Of a stretch of 64,000 nt of DNA, positions 1,692 to 54,039 are shown in pieces (the first letter of the stretch is position 1; the number at the start of each line of letters is the position of its first letter). The stretch lies in NCBI GenBank assembly GCA_963820595.1, contig CAWGAO010000005.1, forward strand, positions 3,853-67,852, given 5' to 3'. Below the pieces are notes generated by a model. That model was not told where the DNA came from. It worked only from the letters and a program-made list of their open reading frames with translations, and searched no databases. A program made the translations under genes and the position numbers. This DNA comes from Candidatus Tagabacteria bacterium. GTDB lineage: Bacteria; Patescibacteriota; Minisyncoccia; GCA-002779875.

Positions 1692-2975
1692 ATGAAAATC
1701 ATCGAGCGAAATGCTTCATCTAGTAATCTCAAGATTATTTTGGCGCCGAGGGCGGGCGCAGAATCGGTAACTGGAATTTTTGCGGTTCGCGCAGGCAGTA
1801 AATACGAAACAACCGAGAATAAAGGAATCGCGCATTTTTGGGAACACATGTCGTTTAAGGGCACGCAAAAACGGCCAACGCCTTTGGACATTACGAAGGA
1901 AATAGAGGGGCGGGGCGGAGATTACAACGCTTTTACTTCGAAAGAAATGACTTGGTATTACATAAAAATTCTTCCTAAGTATCTGGAAGTTGTTTGCGAC
2001 GTTCTCTCCGATATACTGCTGAATTCCGTTATCGACCCGGCAGAAATCGAGAAAGAAAAAGGGGTTATTGTCCAAGAGATCATGAGAGGCCAAGACGACC
2101 CCGAAAATTATGTTATTTCAAAAATGTGGCCCGAATTGCTTTACGGAGACCAGCCTGCCGGTTGGGATATTCTTGGCACCGAAGAAAGCGTTAAAGCGAT
2201 GACCAGAGAAAATTTCACGGAATTTTTGGGAAATCTTTACACTGACGAAAACGCCGTATTCTGTTTAGCGGGGAAAATATCGGACGAAGAAAAAGCATTC
2301 GCCGCAGTTAGTAATTTTTTTTGTGGAATCAGAAAAGGGAAGCTAAAAATCATAAAGCAGCTGACGACCGAAAAGCAGGAAAAACCGGCTCTTCTTGTGA
2401 AAGTTCAAGATACCCAGCAGAGCCATATTGTTTTGGGGGTAAGGGCTTGTAATATCTTTGACCCCAGAAAATACATCTTTCAGGTGCTAGACATTATTCT
2501 GGGCGGAAATACCTGCTCCCGTCTCTTTACGGAAATCAGGGAAAAAAGGGGTTTGGCATATGGCGTATATTCTTTTTTAAGCTGGCAATCGGACATCGGC
2601 TATCTTGCTACATCAACTGGCGTTAATAAAGAAAAAGCGGAAGAAACTGTAAAGGTCATCATTGATGAATGTAAAAAGCTTTGCGACGCTAAAGTTTCCG
2701 ACGAGGAACTGCAAAGAGCGAAAGATTGTCTTATCAGTTCTTCGAAGATGGATATGGAATCTTCTTATGGCGTTGCTTCTTTTGTCGCCAGGCAATGGGT
2801 ATACTACGACAAGATTTTTCCTCTTTCGGAAATAGCAAAAAAAATAGAAGCGGTTACGGCCGAAGATGTACAGACGGTTGCGCGGGAAATTTTTATAGAC
2901 AAAGGGTTGAATTTGGCCATCATCGGTCCTCATGCCGGTATGGAAGAAGAATTTTTGAAAATTCTCAAATTTTAA
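1692..2975 (+). CDS. M16 (pitrilysin/insulinase) family zinc peptidase
   Basis: HxxEH motif (AHFWEHMSFKGT) near the N-terminus. 427 aa. AGGAGGGAGG Shine-Dalgarno directly upstream. Confidence 0.85.
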   Translation: MKIIERNASSSNLKIILAPRAGAESVTGIFAVRAGSKYETTENKGIAHFWEHMSFKGTQKRPTPLDITKEIEGRGGDYNAFTSKEMTWYYIKILPKYLEVVCDVLSDILLNSVIDPAEIEKEKGVIVQEIMRGQDDPENYVISKMWPELLYGDQPAGWDILGTEESVKAMTRENFTEFLGNLYTDENAVFCLAGKISDEEKAFAAVSNFFCGIRKGKLKIIKQLTTEKQEKPALLVKVQDTQQSHIVLGVRACNIFDPRKYIFQVLDIILGGNTCSRLFTEIREKRGLAYGVYSFLSWQSDIGYLATSTGVNKEKAEETVKVIIDECKKLCDAKVSDEELQRAKDCLISSSKMDMESSYGVASFVARQWVYYDKIFPLSEIAKKIEAVTAEDVQTVAREIFIDKGLNLAIIGPHAGMEEEFLKILKF

Positions 2976-5696: not shown

Positions 5697-5743
5697 GATT
5701 TGTGATATTCTTAAAATAATGCGTATCATTGCCGACCCCGCCC

Positions 5744-5840
5744 TAATTTTACGAGGTAGAACCATAGCGAGACGCTTCGCGCAAAAGGCCTGCCTGCCGG
5801 CAGGCAGGGATGCGCTATTCGCGCCCGCGCCTCGCGAGAC
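5744..5840. repeat. partial copy (H) of the GC-rich palindromic element core
   Basis: About 88% identical by eye to the reverse complement of 15197-15302. Contains ACCCCGCCCTAATTTTAC and the 20-bp perfect palindrome CCTGCCTGCCGGCAGGCAGG (5789-5808). Confidence 0.85.
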
Positions 5841-5920
5841 AGAATTAAGTTTCATTTTTTTTGTTTAAATTCAAATCCGTTTCCAACGGTAAAATTAAAG
5901 CGGGATTAAAGATTTTATTT

Positions 5921-7198: not shown

Positions 7199-7394
7199 AA
7201 AAATAAGGAGCCCCGACGTAAGGCGGGACGACTATATTTTTCTTACCCCCTCACTCAAATTTTCATTTAGTTCCTAAGTAATTATTAAATTTAAAAATTA
7301 ATACTCGATTAAAAATGATTTTTTTGAGATAATTTTGATTATGAGTGAGGGGGTGCTCAAAATTATTATTCACTAACGTTCATATAATTTTGGC
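7199..7394 (+). repeat. modular palindromic intergenic element, copy A (M + long C5/G5 stem + M')
   Basis: M is GAAAAATAAGGAGC-ccgacgtaaggcggga-CGACTATATTTTTC (7199-7242). The stem is CCCCCTCACTCA (7246-7257) paired with TGAGTGAGGGGG (7342-7353). M' (7354-7394) ends at the ATG at 7395. Confidence 0.9.
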
Positions 7395-8054
7395 ATGAAT
7401 ATAAAAAAGTTTTTCTTGCCGATAAATAAAATTATTAAGGTTTTGATGTTGTCCGACTTTATTATTATTTCGGCTTTTGGGTTTGTGGCGCCGATTTTTG
7501 CCCTTTTTCTTACCGATAAAATTCAAGGCGGAACGATAGAAACCGTCGGTTATGCCGCGGCTATTTATTGGGTTGCGGCAGTTTTAACCCGTTTGCCTAT
7601 TGCCAGACGTATAGATAAAACCAAATCGGAAAAAGATGACTTCTATTTTATGATTTTCGGCTCTATTTTGATTGCTGTCGTGCCTTTTCTTTGGATTTTT
7701 AGCACTAAAATTTGGCATATTTATTGCATTGAAGCGCTTTACGGTTTGGGATATTCTTTGCGTCTTCCGGGTTGGTATGGTATGTTTACCCGCCATATCG
7801 ATAAGGGTCACGAAGGTTACGAATGGAGTTTCGATTCTTTGGTGTCCGGTGTCGGTTCCGGCATTACGGCGGCTTTGGGCGGAATTATGGCTGCAAGGAT
7901 GGGTTTCAATGCTTTATTCATTGTTATCGGAGCTCTTTCGATTATCGGTTCGGCTGTTTTAATTTTTCTTTATTATATCGTCGAGCCGGATCACCGGCGC
8001 AATGATAATATTCCGGGTTTAAGTTTAAATAATGATGGAGATAAAAAACAATAG
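7395..8054 (+). CDS. six-TM MFS-like half-size transporter
   Basis: 219 aa with six hydrophobic helices. The loop motif RLPIARRIDK resembles the MFS D-R-x-G-R-K-type loop. Confidence 0.4.
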   Translation: MNIKKFFLPINKIIKVLMLSDFIIISAFGFVAPIFALFLTDKIQGGTIETVGYAAAIYWVAAVLTRLPIARRIDKTKSEKDDFYFMIFGSILIAVVPFLWIFSTKIWHIYCIEALYGLGYSLRLPGWYGMFTRHIDKGHEGYEWSFDSLVSGVGSGITAALGGIMAARMGFNALFIVIGALSIIGSAVLIFLYYIVEPDHRRNDNIPGLSLNNDGDKKQ

Positions 8055-15095: not shown

Positions 15096-15302
15096 TTTTA
15101 TTATGAGCGGAGCGAATTATAAAAATGAGCACCCCGCTCTAATTTTACCGTTAAAATCAAAATTGTCATTTATTGAACTAAAGAACCTATTTTAATCTCG
15201 CGAGGTGCGGGCGCGAATAGCGCATCCCTGCCTGCCGGCAGGCAGGCTTTTAGCGCGAAACGCCTCGCCGTTGTTCTATCTTGTAAAATTAGGGCGTGGG
15301 TT
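15096..15302 (-). repeat. modular palindromic intergenic element, copy G (between infC and rpmI)
   Basis: M' abuts the rpmI ATG (sense: GGGGTGCTCATTTTTATAATTCGCTCCGCTCATAATAAAAATG). Outer stem is 15130-15148 paired with 15283-15302 (CCCCGCTCTAATTTTAC / GTAAAATTAGGGCGTGGG). The GC-rich core carries CCTGCCTGCCGGCAGGCAGG (15227-15246). Confidence 0.9.
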
Positions 15303-16257: not shown

Positions 16258-16269
16258 GCGAATTCACTT

Positions 16270-16614
16270 TGGAGATGGCGAGATTTGAACTCGCGTCAAG
16301 AAGTTAAATGCATTATCGTCTACAAGCTTGTTTCGGTTGAATAAGATTGCGGTTAGAACCGAAAGAAAAACGCAAAATTTTTCCTTCTTTTTAGTCGCTC
16401 TATATCGAAGGTTTATAGAGTCTAGCCCGATAATGACGTCTCGGTCTTTCTATCGTGCATCAAAAGAGAGACGGCTTTTGCTTAAATTTTAAGCAAAAGC
16501 GTAAGCAGGTTGATTCACTGCATTTACATTTGTTGAACGGATTTTAAAGAGGTAACCGATCATCCTCTGCCTGCGAATAACGCATTTTGACTCCCTTCGA
16601 AGCCTTTCATCCCC
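16270..16614 (-). ncRNA. ssrA: tmRNA (SsrA)
   Basis: 5' end GGGGAUGAAAGGCUUCGAAGGG, 3' end GACGCGAGUUCAAAUCUCGCCAUCUCCA. The acceptor stem has a G3:U pair. Tag ORF GCA GUG AAU CAA CCU GCU UAC GCU UUU GCU UAA encodes AVNQPAYAFA*. A helix (GCUUUUGCUUAAA/UUUAAGCAAAAGC) spans the stop. It lies next to smpB. Confidence 0.85.
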
Positions 16615-18321: not shown

Positions 18322-18531
18322 TTTCTAAGGTGGGCGACCCCGCACAAATTTTGCGGGATAAATTAATGGCAGACCGCTGCGCCCAAAAAGGATGAAGCTA
18401 TTCGCTTCCCGCGGTCTGCGAGAGCAAAAATTTATTATTTTATTAAAGGTTTAATTTATAGCGTGAGGGGGTGGCAAAATTTGAGCGGGGTGCTCATTTT
18501 TGCGACTACTCGCTGACGCTTGCAGGCAAAA
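18322..18531 (+). repeat. modular palindromic intergenic element, copy I (secE-nusG gap)
   Basis: Outer stem is GACCCCGCACAAATTTTGC (18336-18354) paired with GGCAAAATTTGAGCGGGGTG (18473-18492). Inner stem is GCAGACCGC/GCGGTCTGC (18369-18377/18411-18419). An M'-like tail (CTCATTTTTGCGACTACTCGCT...) runs to ATG 18532. Confidence 0.85.
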
Positions 18532-19078: not shown

Positions 19079-19150
19079 AAAAATAAGGAGCGATAGCGAC
19101 TATATTTTTCGTAAAAAATTATTATTCACTAACGTTTATATAATTTTGGC
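19079..19150 (+). repeat. modular palindromic intergenic element, minimal copy B (M directly abutting M')
   Basis: AAAAATAAGGAGCgataGCGACTATATTTTTC is followed by GTAAAAAATTATTATTCACTAACGTTTATATAATTTTGGC, then the ATG of rplK. Confidence 0.9.
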
Positions 19151-19577
19151 ATGGCAAAGAAGATTAAAACAATAATAAAACTTCAGATTCCCGCCGGAAA
19201 AGCGAATCCCGCCCCTCCGGTCGGGCCGGCTTTGGGCCAGCACGGCCTCAATATTGGCGAGTTCGTTTCGAGATTCAATGAAGCTACAAAGGAGATGGGA
19301 GATGATATTATTCCCGTTGAAATCACGGTTTATGAAGACCGCACTTATCAGTTTAAACTGAAAACCCCGCCAGCATCGGATTTATTGCGCAAAGCAGCCG
19401 GCATCGAAAAGGGCGCAAGCAACCCTTTAACTTCCAAAGTCGGAAAAATATCAAAGGCCAAAATTCGTGAAATTGCCGAACGAAAAATGGAAGATTTGAA
19501 CGCCAACGATATCGATGCGGCGCAAGAAAATTATAATGGGCACCGCGCGGAGTATGGGGATAGAGATTAAAGATTAA
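19151..19577 (+). CDS. rplK: 50S ribosomal protein L11 (frameshift about 50 nt before the end)
   Basis: [32 protein letters not shown] is canonical. After about 19525 the conserved C-terminus [15 protein letters not shown] is in the +1 frame and ends at 19577. Confidence 0.9.
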
Positions 19578-28253: not shown

Positions 28254-28483
28254 CCAAAAATTAAGAAAGTCGCTTTTATGCGACCGACTATAATTTTTGA
28301 GAACCCCGCTCTAATTTTGCCGTAGATGTTTCAATAAAGGTTTAACAAATCTAAAAAGGCCGAGTTGTTCTCATGGCGCAGAGCCGAAATAGGCCGAGCG
28401 AAGCGAGTGCGCCACCGTAGCAATATTTCGCAAAATTAGGGCGGGGTTGAAAGGGCTGTTAAATTAAGTACTATTAACATTAT
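28254..28483 (+). repeat. modular palindromic intergenic element, copy F (upstream of ileS)
   Basis: M-like CCAAAAATTAAGAAAGTCGCttttatGCGACCGACTATAATTTTTGAG. Stem is AACCCCGCTCTAATTTTGC (28301-28320) paired with GCAAAATTAGGGCGGGGTT (28430-28448). The tail runs to ATG 28484. Confidence 0.85.
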
Positions 28484-31400
28484 ATGCAAGGAAAGGAGGA
28501 AAAATTAAGTTTTCCCGAGCGGGAAGAGAAGATTTTGGAGTTCTGGAAAAAGAACAAGATTTTTGAAAAATCCGTTGAGCAGAGGAAGGGCGAAAAAGAA
28601 ATTCGTTTTTTACGAAGGCCCGCCGACGGCCAACGGCCAGCCAGGCATTCACAGCATGGAAGCGCGTGTTTTTAAAGATATTGTTTTGCGCTATAAAGCA
28701 ATGCGGGGATTTTATTGCAAGCGAAAAGCCGGCTGGGACACCCACGGTTTGCCCGTAGAAATCCAGGTTGAAAAAGAACTTGGTTTAAAAAATAAAAAAG
28801 AAATTGAGGAATATGGCATTGAAAAATTTATAGAGAAATGCAAGGAAAGCGTTTGGCGTTACAGGAATGAGTGGGAAAATACTGACATACCGGATGGCTT
28901 ACTGGCTGGATATGAAAAACGCTTACGCGACAATGACGAACGATTACATCGAAACTCTTTGGTGGATTTTCAAAGAGATCGACAAGCGAAAATTGCTTTA
29001 CGAGGATTATAAAATCGTTCCTTGGTGTCCGCGTTGCGGAACCGCTCTTTCTTCGCACGAGGTCAGCCAGGGTTATCGCAAAATAAAAGAAGATTCCGTT
29101 TATATAAAATTTCCCGTGAAAGGAAGACCGAATACTTATTTTTTGGTTTGGACAACTACGCCCTGGACATTGCCGTCCAATGTTGCTTTGGCGATAAATC
29201 CCAAAATAACGTATACCATAATCGAAAAAGACGGACGAGCGCTTGATTTTGGCGAAAAATCGCCTTTCCGTTATCGATGGTGAATACAGGATTGGCGAAG
29301 AAAAACCGGGAACTGATTTAATCGGCAGAGAGTATGACCCCTTATACTCGCGGAGCGCTTAACCCAGACCAAGTCGAGGGGCTTATAAAATTTATGCCGC
29401 GGATTTTGTTTCCGCTGACGACGGCACGGGTATTGTCCATATTGCTCCGGCTTTCGGCGAAGACGATATGAAACTGGGCAAAGCGAATAATCTCCCGGTT
29501 TTAAGTCTTGTCGACGAAGAAGGAAAAATGCTGACGCCGAATTACAAATGGAACGGAATGTTTATCAAAGACGCCGACCCGTTGATTGTCGAAGATTTGC
29601 GCCAAAGAAATCTTCTTTATAAAACCGAAAGCTACGAGCATGATTATCCTTTTTGCTGGCGCTGCGACAGTCCTTTGATGTATTATGCCAAAACTTCCTG
29701 GTGGCTGAAGACAACAGGCGTAAAACAGCAGATGATTAAGGAAAATAAAAAAATTCACTGGCACCCGGATTATTTGAAAGACGGCCGTTTCGGCGAATGG
29801 CTGAACGAGTTGCGGGATTGGGCGATTTCGCGCGAGCGTTATTGGGGAACGCCGCTTCCGATATGGCGATGTCCTGATTGCAAGCGTTACGAAGTTATCG
29901 GCTCAAGAGAAGAGTTGAAGAAAAAAACCGTGAAATCGGGAAACAATTATTTTTTGATGAGGCATGGATTTTCGGAAGCCAATCAGAAAAATATCAATAA
30001 TTCAAATATCGAAACAAATCATTACAAACTGACTCCAAAAGGCAAAAAAGAAGTTTTGAAAGCGGCCCAAAAATTGAAAGAAGCAAAAAATAGATTTGAT
30101 TTTCTCCTCCGATTTTTTGAGAACAAAGGAAACGGCGCTGTTGGCGGCTGAAACTTTGGGCATTCCAGAAAAGGATGTTGTTTTTGACGAACGATTGCGC
30201 GAAATAAATACGGGAATTTTCGACGGAAAATCCCGCGCCGAATATCACAAATATTTTTCTTCGCTTCTGGAAAAATTCACCAAAACCCCGCCTCAAGGCG
30301 AAAATTTAACCGAATTGAAAAATCGCATCACGCAGTTTTTGTATGAAATAGAAAATAAGTACAAAGGTAAAAACATTTTGATTGTCAGCCATGAATATCC
30401 GATTTGGATGTTAACTGCGGGAGCAAAAGGAATGACTAACGAGGAAGCGGTGGCGACTAAAGGGGAAAAAAGACGATTTTATTAAAACAGCCGAAGTTAT
30501 GAAACTGGATTTTACGCCTTTGCCTCATGACAAGAATTTTGTTTTGGATTTTCACCGGCCATATATAGATAAAATCATATTGAAATGCGACAAATGCGGC
30601 GGCGACATGATTCGCATTAAAGATGTTTGTGATGTTTGGTTTGATTCCGGTTCGATGCCGTTCGCCCAAAATCACTTTCCATTTTCTATCCCTAAAAAAA
30701 ATTTACTCTATCCGGCGGACTATATTTGTGAAGCGATTGACCAGACAAGAGGGTGGTTTTATACGCTGCTTGCGGTTGCGATTTTGTTGGGACGAAAAGC
30801 GCCTTATAAAAACGTGCTTTCTTTGGGTTTGGTTTTGGACGCCGAGGGGCAAAAAATGTCAAAATCGCGCGGCAACGTGGTGGTGCCAGGAGAATTGATG
30901 AACAAATACGGCGCCGATGCGGTGCGCTGGTATTTTTATACCATCAATCAGCCGTGGGACGAAAAATTATTTAAAGAGGAGGATGTCCAGGCGGCTTTGC
31001 GAAGATTTATTTTGATTTTTTGGAATTGCTTTTCCTATTGGAAAATGTACGCGGGTAAAAATTTTAAAATCAATCCGCCAGCTGGCGGACCCAAATTGGT
31101 TATCAATAAATGGCTGCTGGCGAAATTTAATCAAATTGCCTTAGAAGTTCCCAAATTACTCGATAATTACGATATCGTTTCAGCGGCGCGGTTGATAGAA
31201 GATTTTGTAATTGAAGATATCTCTCATTGGTATATTCGCCGCATGCGCGGAAATAACTGAAAAATTCCGGTTCCCGAGAAGCCAAAGAAATAAATGCGGT
31301 TTTGGGCCAAGTGATTATGGACACAGCAAAATTACTTGCGCCGTTTATGCCTTTTGTTTCAGAAACGGTTTACCGGGAAACGGGCGGGAAAAAGAAAAGC

Positions 31401-34560: not shown

Positions 34561-34772
34561 AAAAATAATGAGCCCTGCCTGCCGGCAGGCAGGGAAGCGA
34601 CTATATTTTTCTTAACCCCCATCTTTTACACCCGACCATTTTAAGGTTAATATTAAAGATATTCTATGATGCAAACTTTTATGCAAACTTCAATGTTGTA
34701 TATATTCTGGTCGGTGTTAAAAGAGGGGGTGATAATTTTATAAAATTCACTTCGTTCGCTAGTAAAATTATC
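34561..34772 (+). repeat. modular palindromic intergenic element, copy C
   Basis: M is AAAAATAATGAGC-CCTGCCTGCCGGCAGGCAGG-GAAGCGACTATATTTTTC. Stem is CCCCCATCTTTTACACCCGACCA (34616-34638) paired with TGGTCGGTGTTAAAAGAGGGGG (34708-34729). M' runs to ATG 34773. Confidence 0.9.
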
Positions 34773-40632: not shown

Positions 40633-40808
40633 GAAAAATAAGAAGCGTTAGCGATTATATTTTTCCCAACCCCCTCTTTTACACCCAAATATTCTTTTTA
40701 TAGCTATATGTAAAAACCAAAAATAATTACTGAAATTGACATTAGATTAAAATTTTGGGGTTAAAAGAGGGGGTTCTCATAAATTATATTCGTTTCGCTC
40801 ATTAATTT
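40633..40808 (+). repeat. modular palindromic intergenic element, copy D
   Basis: M is GAAAAATAAGAAGCgttaGCGATTATATTTTTC. Stem is CCCCCTCTTTTACACCC (40670-40686) paired with GGGGTTAAAAGAGGGGG (40757-40773). M' (TCTCATAAATTATATTCGTTTCGCTCATTAATTT) runs to ATG 40809. Confidence 0.9.
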
Positions 40809-51059: not shown

Positions 51060-51063
51060 GTTC

Positions 51064-51178
51064 GCCCCGTTAGAAGTTTTTAATTTAACTACAGTTTAGT
51101 TAACAGTCAAAACCGTGAGGTGGATTCGCTTTCTAAATATTATTTAACCTCAAGACATCGCTGAACTTCTAACGGGGT
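51064..51178 (+). repeat. long-stem intergenic element, copy K (class CCCGTTAGAAGT)
   Basis: GCCCCGTTAGAAGTT (51064-51078) pairs with AACTTCTAACGGGGT (51164-51178) around an 85-nt AT-rich loop. Confidence 0.85.
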
Positions 51179-51235
51179 TTGCAAAGATTATTGGGTTATA
51201 GTAGTGTTAGAATATTAAAATTTAACTTTTAAAAC

Positions 51236-52427: not shown

Positions 52428-52461
52428 CGACACGATTTGTCCATATGGACAAATCGTGTCG
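52428..52461. repeat. 34-bp perfect palindrome
   Basis: CGACACGATTTGTCCAT|ATGGACAAATCGTGTCG in an ORF-free 370-bp gap. Confidence 0.95.
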
Positions 52462-52529: not shown

Positions 52530-52566
52530 TAATAAAATCTGCGGGGAGTTCAACTTCCCGCAGATT
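52530..52566 (-). terminator. rho-independent terminator of the rpsF-ssb-rpsR operon
   Basis: Minus-strand sense: AATCTGCGGGAA-gttgaac-TCCCCGCAGATT followed by TTTATT. Confidence 0.7.
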
Positions 52567-52626: not shown

Positions 52627-52833
52627 TTAGTGGCTGACGAAAGGCAGGAGGCCCATGATGCGGCTGCGTTTTATCGCTTTGGCGAGTTTCCGCTGGTGTT
52701 TCGCGCAGACATCGCTTCTTTTTCTCGCGACAATTTTTGCTTGCGGATCTATGAAGCGTTTCAGCGTTTCAACGTCGGTATATTCGATTGTTCTTACGTT
52801 ATTTGTGCAAAAATAACAGTTTCTTTCTGCCAT
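52627..52833 (-). CDS. rpsR: 30S ribosomal protein S18
   Basis: MAERNCYFCTNNVRTIEYTDVETLKRFI... The start was chosen at the ATG at 52833 rather than at the ORF-track start. Confidence 0.9.
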   Translation of the reverse strand: MAERNCYFCTNNVRTIEYTDVETLKRFIDPQAKIVARKRSDVCAKHQRKLAKAIKRSRIMGLLPFVSH

Positions 52834-52948
52834 AATTTCCAAAAAATAAAGAGCGAAGCGATTATATTTTTTGAGAACCCCGCCTTTGGCGGGGTTAAGG
52901 TTTTGCAACCACGATTTGTCGCTTCATTCCAAATCGCGGGCAAATTCC
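52834..52948 (-). repeat. modular palindromic intergenic element, copy E (ssb-rpsR gap)
   Basis: Sense strand: AACCCCGCCaaaGGCGGGGTT followed by CTCAAAAAATATAATCGCTTCGCTCTTTATTTTTTGGAAATT and then the ATG of rpsR. An extra hairpin lies at 52911-52938. Confidence 0.85.
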
Positions 52949-53392
52949 TTAAAACGGTATATCTTCGGGATTTACTTCTTCTTCCGGGTATTCGATAGTC
53001 TCTAACGGTTCGGGAGCGGGAGCGGGCTTATTTCCTCCTTTTGATGTTGGTTCTTGCATCCCTGACCGTCGCGGTCCGAATTGCAGACGTTCGGATATTA
53101 TCTCTGTTTTGGAATGTTTTGTGCCGTCTTTAGCATCCCAATTTCTGGTTTGAATTCTTCCTTCAATTAAAACGGAACTGCCTTTTGTAAGGTATTGTTT
53201 GACTATTTCCGCCTGTTTTCCAAAAACAACGATATTGTGGAATTGGACATCTTCTTTTTTCTGTCCGCTTTTGTCTTTCCAAACGCGATTGGTAGCTACG
53301 CCGAATGACGTCACGGACACTCCCGAAGGAAGAGCTTTCAATTCTGGATCTCTTGTAAGATTTCCGATAATGAAAACTTTATTTAGATTCAT
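52949..53392 (-). CDS. ssb: single-stranded DNA-binding protein
   Basis: MNLNKVFIIGNLTRDPELK.. OB fold and an acidic tail ending DIPF. Confidence 0.95.
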   Translation of the reverse strand: MNLNKVFIIGNLTRDPELKALPSGVSVTSFGVATNRVWKDKSGQKKEDVQFHNIVVFGKQAEIVKQYLTKGSSVLIEGRIQTRNWDAKDGTKHSKTEIISERLQFGPRRSGMQEPTSKGGNKPAPAPEPLETIEYPEEEVNPEDIPF

Positions 53393-53529
53393 CCCGTTAG
53401 AAGTCTGTCTTTATATGACCAAAATAGTCAATTTCAGACAGCTTTATTTATGAAGTGAATGATCCCCGTTCGTTTCCAGCACAGAAAAATTTTATTAAAA
53501 TTTTTCTGCGCAAAGACTTCTAGCGGGAT
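53391..53529 (-). repeat. long-stem intergenic element, copy L (rpsF-ssb gap)
   Basis: ATCCCGTTAGAAGTCT (53391-53406) pairs with AGACTTCTAGCGGGAT (53514-53529). An inner perfect palindrome CAGAAAAATTTTATTAAAATTTTTCTG lies at 53482-53508. The element spans exactly from the rpsF stop to the ssb start. Confidence 0.85.
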
Positions 53530-54039
53530 TCATTGACCGAGTATTTCTTCTAATTTTTTGTCAATTTCTTCGACCTGAAGAGGTTCGCCTCGCTCGCCTC
53601 GCGTCGAAGCGGGCTTCGCGGGCGAAGCGGCTATCTTTGGTTTTGCCTCTTCTGTTGCTGATCCTAATGGGGCTTCTTTGCTCACTGACTGGCGGATCAC
53701 CCTCCTTTTAAGGGAACGCTTTGCCAGTTCGCCCTCATGTTTTGCTTGGCTTATCATTGAGCGCAGTAAATCAAATTTTTCAAGATTTTTTTTAAACGGT
53801 ACGATTTTTCCAACGGGAAAAATAAATTTCAGAAAACCGGCATAGCCGATTTTGTGATTTTTAATCGGGTAGCCTAAATTTTGTTTTTGGGGTTTATTTT
53901 CCTTAATAATTATGCCTTGTTCGTCTTCGAGCGCTTTTCGAATAAGTTCGCTTATCTCGAGCGCCTTTTCTTCCCCCAGATCTCCTTTTAAGACATAGCC
54001 AAATTCGTATAATCTCGTTTTTTCTTCCTTTTCTTCCAT
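53530..54039 (-). CDS. rpsF: 30S ribosomal protein S6 with an extended C-terminal tail
   Basis: RLYEFGYVL... has S6-like N-terminal domain spacing. Operon position is upstream of ssb-rpsR. 169 aa. Confidence 0.75.
   Translation of the reverse strand: MEEKEEKTRLYEFGYVLKGDLGEEKALEISELIRKALEDEQGIIIKENKPQKQNLGYPIKNHKIGYAGFLKFIFPVGKIVPFKKNLEKFDLLRSMISQAKHEGELAKRSLKRRVIRQSVSKEAPLGSATEEAKPKIAASPAKPASTRGERGEPLQVEEIDKKLEEILGQ

Follow-up and report, generated by a model that had tools for sequence, protein, structure and literature searches.

A small palindromic insertion, probably of a mobile family, on the ssb start codon of a candidate phyla radiation bacterium

The rpsF-ssb-rpsR operon of a Candidatus Tagabacteria bacterium lies within the 64,000-nucleotide (nt) stretch of DNA analysed here (contig CAWGAO010000005.1, positions 3,853 to 67,852; hereafter the window), and the gap between its first two genes is occupied by a palindromic element that we call L. 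The original prediction for this locus, made from the sequence letters alone, held that both gaps of the operon are filled edge to edge by palindromic elements (copy L between rpsF and ssb, copy E between ssb and rpsR), that the stem class of L recurs upstream of recA (copy R), and that such exact occupancy suggests spacers tolerated or used as RNA structures. Homologues of the window's SSB place the organism in the Patescibacteria/Paceibacterota, and a look-up for contigs encoding its exact SSB sequence returned no match. The genes of the operon and the parts of L, with coordinates in the window and genes called as open reading frames (ORFs), are:

53530-54039, minus strand: rpsF (ribosomal protein S6), an ORF supported by tblastn to the S6 genes of related loci and by Pfam Ribosomal_S6 on its orthologues
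53532-53530, minus strand: TGA stop codon of rpsF
52949-53392, minus strand: ssb, an ORF, with Pfam SSB on all homologues
52627-52833, minus strand: rpsR (ribosomal protein S18), an ORF supported by homology
53392-53528, minus strand: element L proper, 137 nt, type 1a; mRNA strand 5'-T CCCGCTAGAAGTC ... GACTTCTAACGGG A-3'
53514-53529: 5' arm, on the mRNA strand, of the outer stem P1 of L (helix 1), pairing with 53391-53406; its sequence is invariant across the family
53391-53406: 3' arm of P1 on the mRNA strand, containing the A and T of the ssb ATG
53479-53511: inner A/T-rich hairpin H1 of L (GCGCAGAAAAATTTTA-A-TAAAATTTTTCTGTGC, mRNA strand)
53405-53441: 3' domain of L adjoining the ssb start, with helix H2, an internal loop and hairpin H3 (from alignment A1, described below, and its pair counts)

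L begins with the first base past the rpsF TGA and reaches into the ssb ATG, taking in its A and T (53392, 53391), in agreement with the predicted span from stop to start and its 2-nt overlap with the start codon. The 16-bp outer stem is also present, with arms of 16 nt and a single mismatch that is G·U on the plus strand and C·A on the mRNA strand, as is the inner perfect palindrome of 27 nt (13 + 1 + 13), which lies within the 16-nt arms of H1. Next to ssb, helix H2 (CTGTCT/AGACAG) surrounds a conserved internal loop, GAAATT / ATATAA (a -10-like TATAAA), together with the small hairpin H3. Compared with shuffled sequences, L folds with z-scores of -7.8 (mRNA strand) and -9.3 (plus strand); these scores and the recurrence of the termini ruled out chance palindromes.

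The sequences flanking L carry the mark of an insertion, a short target-site duplication:

53529-53532, minus strand: upstream copy of the duplication, TGAA, which holds the rpsF stop TGA; with flanking bases ATGAAT (53533-53528)
53388-53391, minus strand: downstream copy, TGAA; with flanking bases ATGAAT (53392-53387)

On the mRNA strand the junctions read ...ggtcaATGAAT / CCCGCTAGAAGTC...GACTTCTAACGGG / ATGAATctaaat. L has split an overlap between the rpsF TGA and the ssb ATG (caATGAat), leaving the 6-nt repeat ATGAAT, and the ssb ATG is rebuilt from the terminal A of L (53392) and the TG of the duplication. The upstream TGAA still ends rpsF, and the downstream A plus TGAA still begins ssb. 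The exact fit between stop and start thus follows from insertion into a 4-nt ATGA overlap, with duplication of TGAA and a terminal base that rebuilds ATG. Exact occupancy is therefore meaningful, as had been proposed, but as the footprint of transposition and not as selection for an RNA spacer or evidence of an evolved operon regulator. L is a non-autonomous insertion that resembles a MITE (one of the miniature inverted-repeat transposable elements).

If L is an insertion, its empty site can be predicted from its flanks (GGTCAATGAATCTAAATAAAGT), and we scanned a metagenome collection for that sequence. One match, the 1,034-nt contig L128, turned out to be a precise empty allele. Its identity with the window amounts to 92.8% across 950 nt of pheS-rpsF and to 95.6% across the initial 91 nt of ssb; exactly L is missing, and a single ATGAAT is present, in which the rpsF TGA overlaps the ssb ATG. 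Two other matches to the predicted site (L127 and L129) were discarded as chance matches and not relatives. We also fetched loci encoding close SSB homologues and compared their spacers. In L001, 1 nt separates the rpsF stop from the ssb ATG (TAAaATG), and about 22 nt precede rpsR. L002-L004 have the same synteny as the window (pheT-pheS / rpsF-ssb-rpsR / recA), with gaps of 13 nt and 72 nt, and the rpsF-ssb gap of L005 and L006 is 10 nt. The rpsF-ssb spacers of L001, L003 and L005 (1, 13 and 10 nt) contain no stems. At this gap, then, the closest relatives are empty, with an overlap in L128 and short, stemless spacers in the others, which goes against the proposal that the operon keeps its spacer as an RNA structure. 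That the element is tolerated within a core operon is clearly so.

The stem class of L recurs upstream of recA, as had been noticed, with perfect 14-nt arms (CCCCGTTAGAAGTT/AACTTCTAACGGGG, at 51065-51078 and 51164-51177):

51065-51177: element R proper, 113 nt, with termini as in L (C CCCGTTAGAAGTT ... AACTTCTAACGGG G) and an unrelated interior
51061-51064: left flanking repeat of R, TTCG, one base off the right repeat
51178-51181: right flanking repeat of R, TTTG, with which the conserved TTTGCAAAG... segment upstream of recA begins

R stands directly before the conserved recA upstream region. In L003 this region is uninterrupted (ttttaTTTGCAAAAATTATCGGGTTATAGTAG... / ttttaTTTGCAAAAATTATCGGGTTATAGTAGTCTTAGAAT) and equals the window sequence after R, without the element. 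L and R have only their termini in common, and the interior of R had no relatives among the 125 sampled copies described below. With at most one mismatch, the 12-mer of the arms is present four times in the window, in two inverted pairs; by our own calculation, 128 kb of sequence (both strands) should contain about 0.01 exact matches. Because relatives are found that lack L (L128, L001, L003, L005) or R (L003), both are insertions, and L is a recent one.

The ends of L and R define a family with terminal inverted repeats of the form (Y)CCCGTTAGAAGT...ACTTCTAACGGG(R), of which 13 nt are conserved (YCCCGTTAGAAGT...ACTTCTAACGGGR). A scan of one genome per species (species representatives) with the pattern CCCGYTAGAAGT-N85-115-ACTTCTARCGGG returned at least 120 stretches, and about 170 short inverted pairs were found in 0.93 Mb of fetched loci when up to two arm mismatches were allowed. 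Copies are 109-139 nt long and non-coding, their sole reading frames being relic ORFs of 6-43 codons, and they form subfamilies with common termini and different interiors. The 12-13-nt termini are identical in 125 copies, an identity for which the pattern preselected, but L and R were found independently. Among the matches listed, almost all are metagenome-assembled genomes (MAGs) labelled as lineages of the Patescibacteria or candidate phyla radiation (CPR), including Kaiser-, Nealson-, Falkow-, Staskawicz-, Nomura-, Jorgensen-, Yanofsky-, Taylor- and Uhrbacteria as well as Kazan, Saccharibacteria, Paceibacterota and Minisyncoccia. A few copies stand on MAG contigs with other labels (L032, L060 and L108, Gammaproteobacteria; L061, Nitrospirae), which could reflect mis-binning or real spread beyond the radiation.

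A viral collection of 2.9 million contigs held no match to the family, and carriage by phages is thus unsupported. Against Rfam, the window matched only the transfer-messenger RNA (tmRNA) family, and around L, E and R there were only chance-level matches far below the cut-offs, even at a permissive E-value. We found no description of the element in the searchable literature or in Rfam, and the family of L and R is apparently undescribed. Two of the fetched loci carry copies of further note. In L089, two copies have variant arms (564-678, CCCCGTTAGAAGC..., flanked by TTAA; 2068-2176, CCCGTTAGAAAC..., flanked by TCAA(T)), and the family is therefore larger than the exact scan pattern. In L023, two identical 128-nt copies (544-671 and 1248-1375) lie 704 nt apart with the same flanks (GTAAAC), an arrangement that suggests one local segmental duplication and not two separate insertions.

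The duplication seen at L is general in the family. The 4-bp flanks agree exactly in 96 of 125 copies and with at most one mismatch in 105 of 125, compared with 0-3 in shifted-register controls. The duplicated 4-mers, 22 different ones, have the form T-N-N-A; collapsed with their reverse complements, the most frequent are TGAA (39), TGGA (12), TTGA (11), TATG (10) and TAAA (7). The outermost base pair of the element is C:G in 64 copies and T:A in 59, and follows the subfamily: C:G predominates in type 1a (24 of 28 copies) and T:A in type 2 (44 of 51). Because this pair tracks the subfamily, the element is Y-CCCG...CGGG-R with a 4-bp duplication. A 6-bp duplication was considered and rejected, since agreement at positions 1 and 6 of the flanking hexamers (57/125 and 48/125 copies) does not exceed what composition would give and the two positions are mutually complementary and not identical.

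Insertions of this family are concentrated on start codons. Flanks of the form ATGNAY / element / RTGNA were found in 82 of 123 copies, and in 79 of these 82 the regenerated RTG opens an ORF of at least 60 amino acids or one that leaves the locus. For SSB, S18 and S6, the N-terminal alignment of homologues begins exactly at the regenerated start. Of the 1,211 TG[AG]A sites counted in the window, 26 coincide with called start codons and 209 lie wholly between genes. Were hits spread evenly over the non-coding and start-codon sites of this kind in the window, about 11% of insertions would be expected at starts, whereas 48 of the 51 copies with a TG[AG]A duplication are at real ORF starts (binomial p ~2e-42). 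Overlaps of stop and start in an ATGA, as at L, account for 11 of the 82, and in about 27 further copies the upstream gene ends at most 20 nt away. Together with the duplicated TG, the element's final base (A or G) rebuilds ATG or GTG, and the upstream copy of the duplication retains whatever ended there. Since the start is rebuilt and the upstream duplication preserved, both neighbouring genes are left intact.

A smaller set of copies, 14, has a TTGA-type duplication. In 7 of the 14, a TAnnnT hexamer lies 15-18 nt past the sixth base of a regenerated -35-like hexamer (6 by the stricter pattern TA..[AT]T, the seventh being TATCAT). In these insertions (L049 at 985, L052, L058, L089, L097, L099 and L113) the TTGA duplication regenerates TTGAC(A) with a TATAAT-like box at canonical spacing. 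Such -35 hexamers are a second class of tolerated target.

The operon of the window has been hit in other genomes as well. An element stands at the ssb start in L064 (Jorgensenbacteria) and in L106, where it occupies the same ttATGAat overlap as in the window; L054 has one at the rpsF start; and L126 (Nealsonbacteria) has elements at both the ssb and the rpsR starts. In L126 an element CCCCGTTAGAAAT...ATTTCTAACGGGG is nested in the 5' part of the type 1a copy at the ssb start (2258-2521, minus strand), and the copy at the rpsR start is a near-identical type 1a. Because the close relatives of the window are empty and subtypes differ between genomes, these hits on the same operon are independent. 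With its ATGAAY, the conserved ssb start makes a good target.

L aligns with 19 copies from other CPR genomes, and this alignment of 20 type 1a copies (A1) contains four helices: the terminal stem, hairpin H1, helix H2 and the small hairpin H3. Cells of these helices are paired in 94% of cases, compared with at most 52% in slid registers, and 14 pairs are changed on both sides, compared with 6.2 +/- 1.5 in shuffles (0 of 500 shuffles reach 14). The H1 helix (helix 2) is kept across the family with double changes in 6 of 12 pairs, and H3 covaries, with double changes in 4 of 4 pairs of helix 4; the invariance of the terminal stem is partly due to the selection of copies on that stem. Compensatory changes are equally expected for a DNA palindrome. 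On the gene-sense strand there are 17 G·U cells, and 18 cells are A·C/C·A, which are G·U on the antisense strand; the lack of a strand-specific G·U excess argues against selection specifically on RNA. The palindromes are thus maintained, but nothing indicates that selection acts on either RNA strand in particular.

The interiors are strongly polar. Relative to the downstream gene, the orientation of type 1a copies is 27:0 and that of type 2 copies 37:1, and an all-against-all comparison found 112 pairs in the same orientation and 14 in the opposite one. As the termini are symmetric, this polarity most likely reflects selection on an effect of the interior on the gene, and a bias this close to absolute would make the interior polar toward the downstream gene. 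Strand-specific insertion of the IS200/IS605 type, which would explain polarity, was rejected, as the flanking 4-mers vary between copies and match within them and the inverted repeats are true ones. In the gene-proximal domain of type 1a, the TATAAA of the conserved internal loop lies 17 nt before the start codon. A sigma-70 consensus scan of the mRNA strand of L returned no convincing promoter, and no -35 hexamer stands at a proper distance from TATAAA.

Taken together, we regard it as very probable that L and R are mobile insertions of a CPR-wide family of small palindromic, MITE-like elements. Mobility, duplication, association with start codons, empty alleles and orientation bias are each directly apparent from the comparisons above, and the class of L and R has every structural feature of MITEs but a demonstrated autonomous partner. 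Several points weigh against this reading. Neither the 0.93 Mb of fetched loci nor the window contained an autonomous partner with the family termini or any transposase gene. The copies were sampled by exact termini, and all family frequencies apply to that sample only; gene starts at the copies were taken from ORFs and not from annotation. The start-codon preference could reflect target recognition, purifying selection or both. Finally, a purely selfish, decaying MITE would need neither so strict an orientation bias nor interior hairpins conserved across phyla. The ORFs that are flanked by family termini encode a HisF-like protein, DnaB and one unknown protein, housekeeping genes standing between two separate small elements, and a 1.6-kb pair of ends in L089 that was considered as an autonomous element consists of two short variant copies instead.

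One alternative is that the elements are mobile and not neutral, acting as portable, orientation-dependent expression cassettes (an outward promoter and/or a stem that unmasks the start) that the host keeps for driving or tuning the downstream gene. We consider this possible, although the odds are against it. Orientation is nearly fixed despite symmetric termini, the 3' domain is conserved with its TATAAA loop near the start codon, and strong outward promoters are known in the IS1380 family (PMC9330008). The relic ATG upstream is also mostly kept (A in 68, T in 65 and G in 66 of 82 copies), and its ORF always runs through the 5' arm. However, the consensus scan found no promoter and no -35 at the proper distance, and the bias could reflect harm in the wrong orientation, not benefit in the right one.

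Within the main reading of L and R as mobile insertions, we can propose how ssb may still be expressed behind L. One feature of the locus is relevant here:

53495-53533, minus strand: relic start and 12-codon ORF (MNPARSLCAEKF*), which opens at the former ssb ATG (overlapping the rpsF stop) and continues through the 5' arm of P1

Comparable relic ORFs are present in 59 of 79 start-codon copies and always end within the element, 16 of them at a TAA four bases ahead of the new start. Only 15 of the 59 called genes in the window have a Shine-Dalgarno-like motif; because few genes use Shine-Dalgarno sites, a start without one is normal in this genome. The terminal stem would bring the stop and the new start to the foot of the same helix. 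Ribosomes that terminate at the rpsF TGA or translate the 12-codon relic ORF would have to melt the 5' arm of P1, and the ssb AUG in the 3' arm would thereby become accessible. Transcription might also, or instead, start in the gene-proximal 3' domain with its TATAAA loop. Our confidence in any particular mechanism is low.

A further-reaching version, which we hold to be unlikely, is that this is a superphylum-wide mobile element evolved for life on start codons, with a flush terminal stem that sets the old stop or start codon beside the regenerated start codon at the foot of one helix, a last base that rebuilds ATG or GTG, and a gene-proximal domain that works in a single orientation. Ribosomes ending, or initiating on the relic start, at the 5' foot would open the stem, or pass it by shunting, and begin translation at the 3' foot. 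If so, the element would preserve, and could tune, translational coupling, and would be a transposable 5' leader for organisms with few Shine-Dalgarno sites.

The idea behind the original prediction, that selection keeps the elements as cis-acting RNA structures in the S6-SSB-S18 operon and that differential cistron stability or RNase III processing explains their fit, seems to us improbable. It would account for the very stable folds (of both L and, with z = -4.7, E) and for helices that are conserved and covary. The start codons of this same operon carry elements in four other CPR genomes, and the long perfect stems, by analogy with Correia elements, are plausible substrates for RNase III. 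Evidence against it comes from the closest relatives, which are without the element, including L128 at ~93-96% identity; from the dozens of unrelated genes that carry the same element; from the target-site duplications, which mark insertion; from G·U counts that are level between the mRNA and antisense strands; and from the unrelated interiors of L and R.

Two remaining explanations have very little chance of being right. Recombination sites of an integron-like or other site-specific system, akin to folded attC sites, would fit the length of 109-139 nt, the imperfect-palindrome build and, in our own reading, the arm heptamers GTTAGAA and TTCTAAC, each one base off the R-box consensus GTTRRRY/RYYYAAC, but the order of the boxes is reversed (5'-RYYYAAC...GTTRRRY-3' in attC, 5'-GTTAGAA...TTCTAAC-3' in the elements), the copies are dispersed in both genome orientations beside core genes and not in cassette arrays, the 4-bp duplications vary, and the window encodes no integrase. 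An insert that ribosomes bypass, as in T4 gene 60, or that is excised like an intron, with the upstream ATG-NAY as the true ssb start, is suggested by direct repeats that flank a stable hairpin right after a start codon, superficially like take-off and landing sites, yet the codon after the regenerated start is often unlike the upstream NAY (position 6 matches in 48/125), the start codon itself lies within the repeat, element lengths follow no frame rule, the alignment of SSB homologues starts with residue 1 at the downstream ATG, and neither a ribozyme nor an intron family was matched.

The second gap of the operon is of another kind. Its features, and the hairpin that follows rpsR, are:

52834-52948, minus strand: the ssb-rpsR spacer (copy E), with hairpin 1, hairpin 2 and a promoter- or leader-like cassette
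52909-52939: hairpin 1 of E (CCCGCGATTTG ... CAAATCGTGG), in a stretch of ~46 nt absent from the L003 spacer
52876-52896: hairpin 2 of E (AACCCCGCC-AAA-GGCGGGGTT)
52834-52875, minus strand: M' cassette CTCAAAAAATATAATCGCTTCGCTC...ATG (mRNA strand)
52536-52566, minus strand: terminator-like hairpin 3' of rpsR (AATCTGCGGGGAAGTTGAACTCCCCGCAGATT, then TTTATT)

E lacks the CCCGTTAGAAGT termini and does not belong to the family of L and R. The prediction that both gaps are filled by palindromic elements holds for L and not for E, whose coordinates are simply those of the whole gap, a fit by definition; E is a structured gap that ends, as proposed, with the M' module at the rpsR ATG, but it is not a copy of the same kind as L and R. 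The L003-type relative has an equivalent of hairpin 2 at the same position (AATCCCGCC-TTT-GGCGGGAT), and the M' cassette contains a -10-like TATAAT at 52867-52862, 24 nt before the rpsR ATG. The junction motif GGGRTKCTCAWWWWW, between the 3' arm of the GC stem and the sequence that follows, occurs 7 times in the window, against 1.25 expected; 5 of the 7 copies lie 31-43 nt before a start codon on the same strand, including those of rpsR, nusG and the genes at 7395 and 40809, and several have TATAAT and then TCGCTYCGCTC in common. Among the 129 fetched loci the motif is found in L002-L004 only, at the orthologous ssb-rpsR spacer. E is thus a lineage-specific GC hairpin joined to a promoter- or leader-like cassette. 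It probably gives rpsR its own transcription start, and to that limited extent agrees with the earlier idea of differential cistron expression. No intrinsic terminator (a GC-rich stem followed by a U-tract) was called on the minus strand in L or E, and the terminator-like hairpin of the operon comes after rpsR.

A perfect palindrome with overlapping 18-nt arms (CGACACGATTTGTCCATATGGACAAATCGTGTCG) lies 3' of rpsR at 52428-52461 and has CACGATTTGTC in common with hairpin 1 of E (52905-52922). The succession of TATAAT or TATAAA, TTTGGC and ATG recurs in the window (7377-7397, 19133-19153) and in L003 (1690-1716), and a -10-like box 6 nt from a start codon suggests leaderless mRNAs.

Other palindromic elements are present in the window. 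A second long-stem class, 147-168 nt long, has copies at 5737-5904 (plus strand), 15132-15299 (minus), 18337-18491 (plus) and 28302-28448 (minus), with arms CCCCGC(N)C(T/A)AATTTT(G/A)C and a GC-rich inner helix that contains a small hairpin with a UAUUC/UAUUUC loop. The stem of this hairpin compensates between copies (GCGC/GCGC, GAAGC/GCTTC, GCC/GGC), and the hairpin CCTGCCTGCCGGCAGGCAGG, common to two of them, is also found at 34571-34599. Conserved gene pairs harbour this class, which follows infC and precedes rplT and also occupies the gap between a SecE-like ORF and nusG. Grouping this class with L and R as one lineage-specific repeat was rejected, since its arms differ and it has no clean 4-bp duplication, and L and R are CPR-wide. 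A third stem class (ACCCCCTCACTCA... / AACCCCCTCTTTTA...) is found at 7245-7354, at 40668-40775 and at about 34615-34700; GCGAYTATATTTTTC precedes it on the upstream side, its inverted counterpart CTCAWWWWTATWAT stands on the other side, and the palindrome may extend over the M/M' modules. At 19096-19153 the upstream module GCGACTATATTTTTC joins AAAAAATTATTATTCACTAACGTTTATATAATTTTGGCATG directly with no stem between them, resembling 7228-7397 minus its 110-nt palindrome, and this may be an empty site of the third class.

Elsewhere in the window, four consecutive ORFs on the same strand (28563-29012, 29022-29246, 29468-30151 and 30499-31260) occupy the place of an expected single gene for a class I aminoacyl-tRNA synthetase, and the first matches tRNA-synt_1; the split could be due to frameshifts, assembly error or insertions within the gene. 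The tmRNA gene, the sole Rfam family found in the window, lies at 16269-16614 on the minus strand and encodes the tag peptide AVNQPAYAFA.

About two thirds of the sampled copies of the family of L and R sit exactly on start codons and regenerate them. The element offers a built-in signpost to real start codons where genomes are difficult to annotate, and it accounts for some of the overlong 'spacers' in CPR operons that are compact elsewhere. It also provides a natural experiment on how translational coupling and initiation without a Shine-Dalgarno site survive across a 135-nt hairpin. The family also points to a transposase active across the radiation.

The ends of the element recall one known group of transposons. 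The piggyBac elements duplicate TTAA, with variants TAAA, TCAA and TATG, and have inverted repeats that begin CCCTT, CCCTC or CCCAT; IS1380 is their prokaryotic relative, used as an outgroup (PMC10813416), and its members, as noted, carry outward promoters (PMC9330008). A 4-bp duplication and termini starting with CC(C) are features of the family of L and R as well. In contrast to the TTAA target of IS1380/piggyBac, this family prefers TGAA/TTCA (39) and TGGA/TCCA (12); TTAA is absent from the table of duplications, and one variant-arm copy in L089 is flanked by it. By analogy of these two end features, an IS1380/piggyBac origin of the transposase is suggested as a lead only. The attC sites of integrons are likewise imperfect palindromes of similar length with R-box-like heptamers.

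In overall design the family most resembles the small repeats Correia (CREE/NEMIS), ERIC/IRU and RUP. These are likewise non-coding elements of ~100-150 bp with terminal inverted repeats and a short target duplication, are dispersed in many copies by genes, and are co-transcribed with them, with long mRNA hairpins possible. The Correia elements of Neisseria carry promoter elements and are cut by RNase III. They have 26-bp inverted repeats and a TA duplication, whereas the family of L and R has other termini and a 4-bp TNNA duplication. Unlike those of Correia-type MITEs, its termini are conserved across a superphylum and not within one genus, start codons (and -35 boxes) are hit precisely and regenerated, and orientation is almost fixed. 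Other mobile elements also use a recurrent gene-boundary signal with minimal damage: group IIC introns sit behind terminators, and IS1397 and ISKpn1 insert in the loops of REP sequences. For the family of L and R, in contrast, the target is a start codon or a -35 hexamer, rebuilt by the last base of the element and the duplication.

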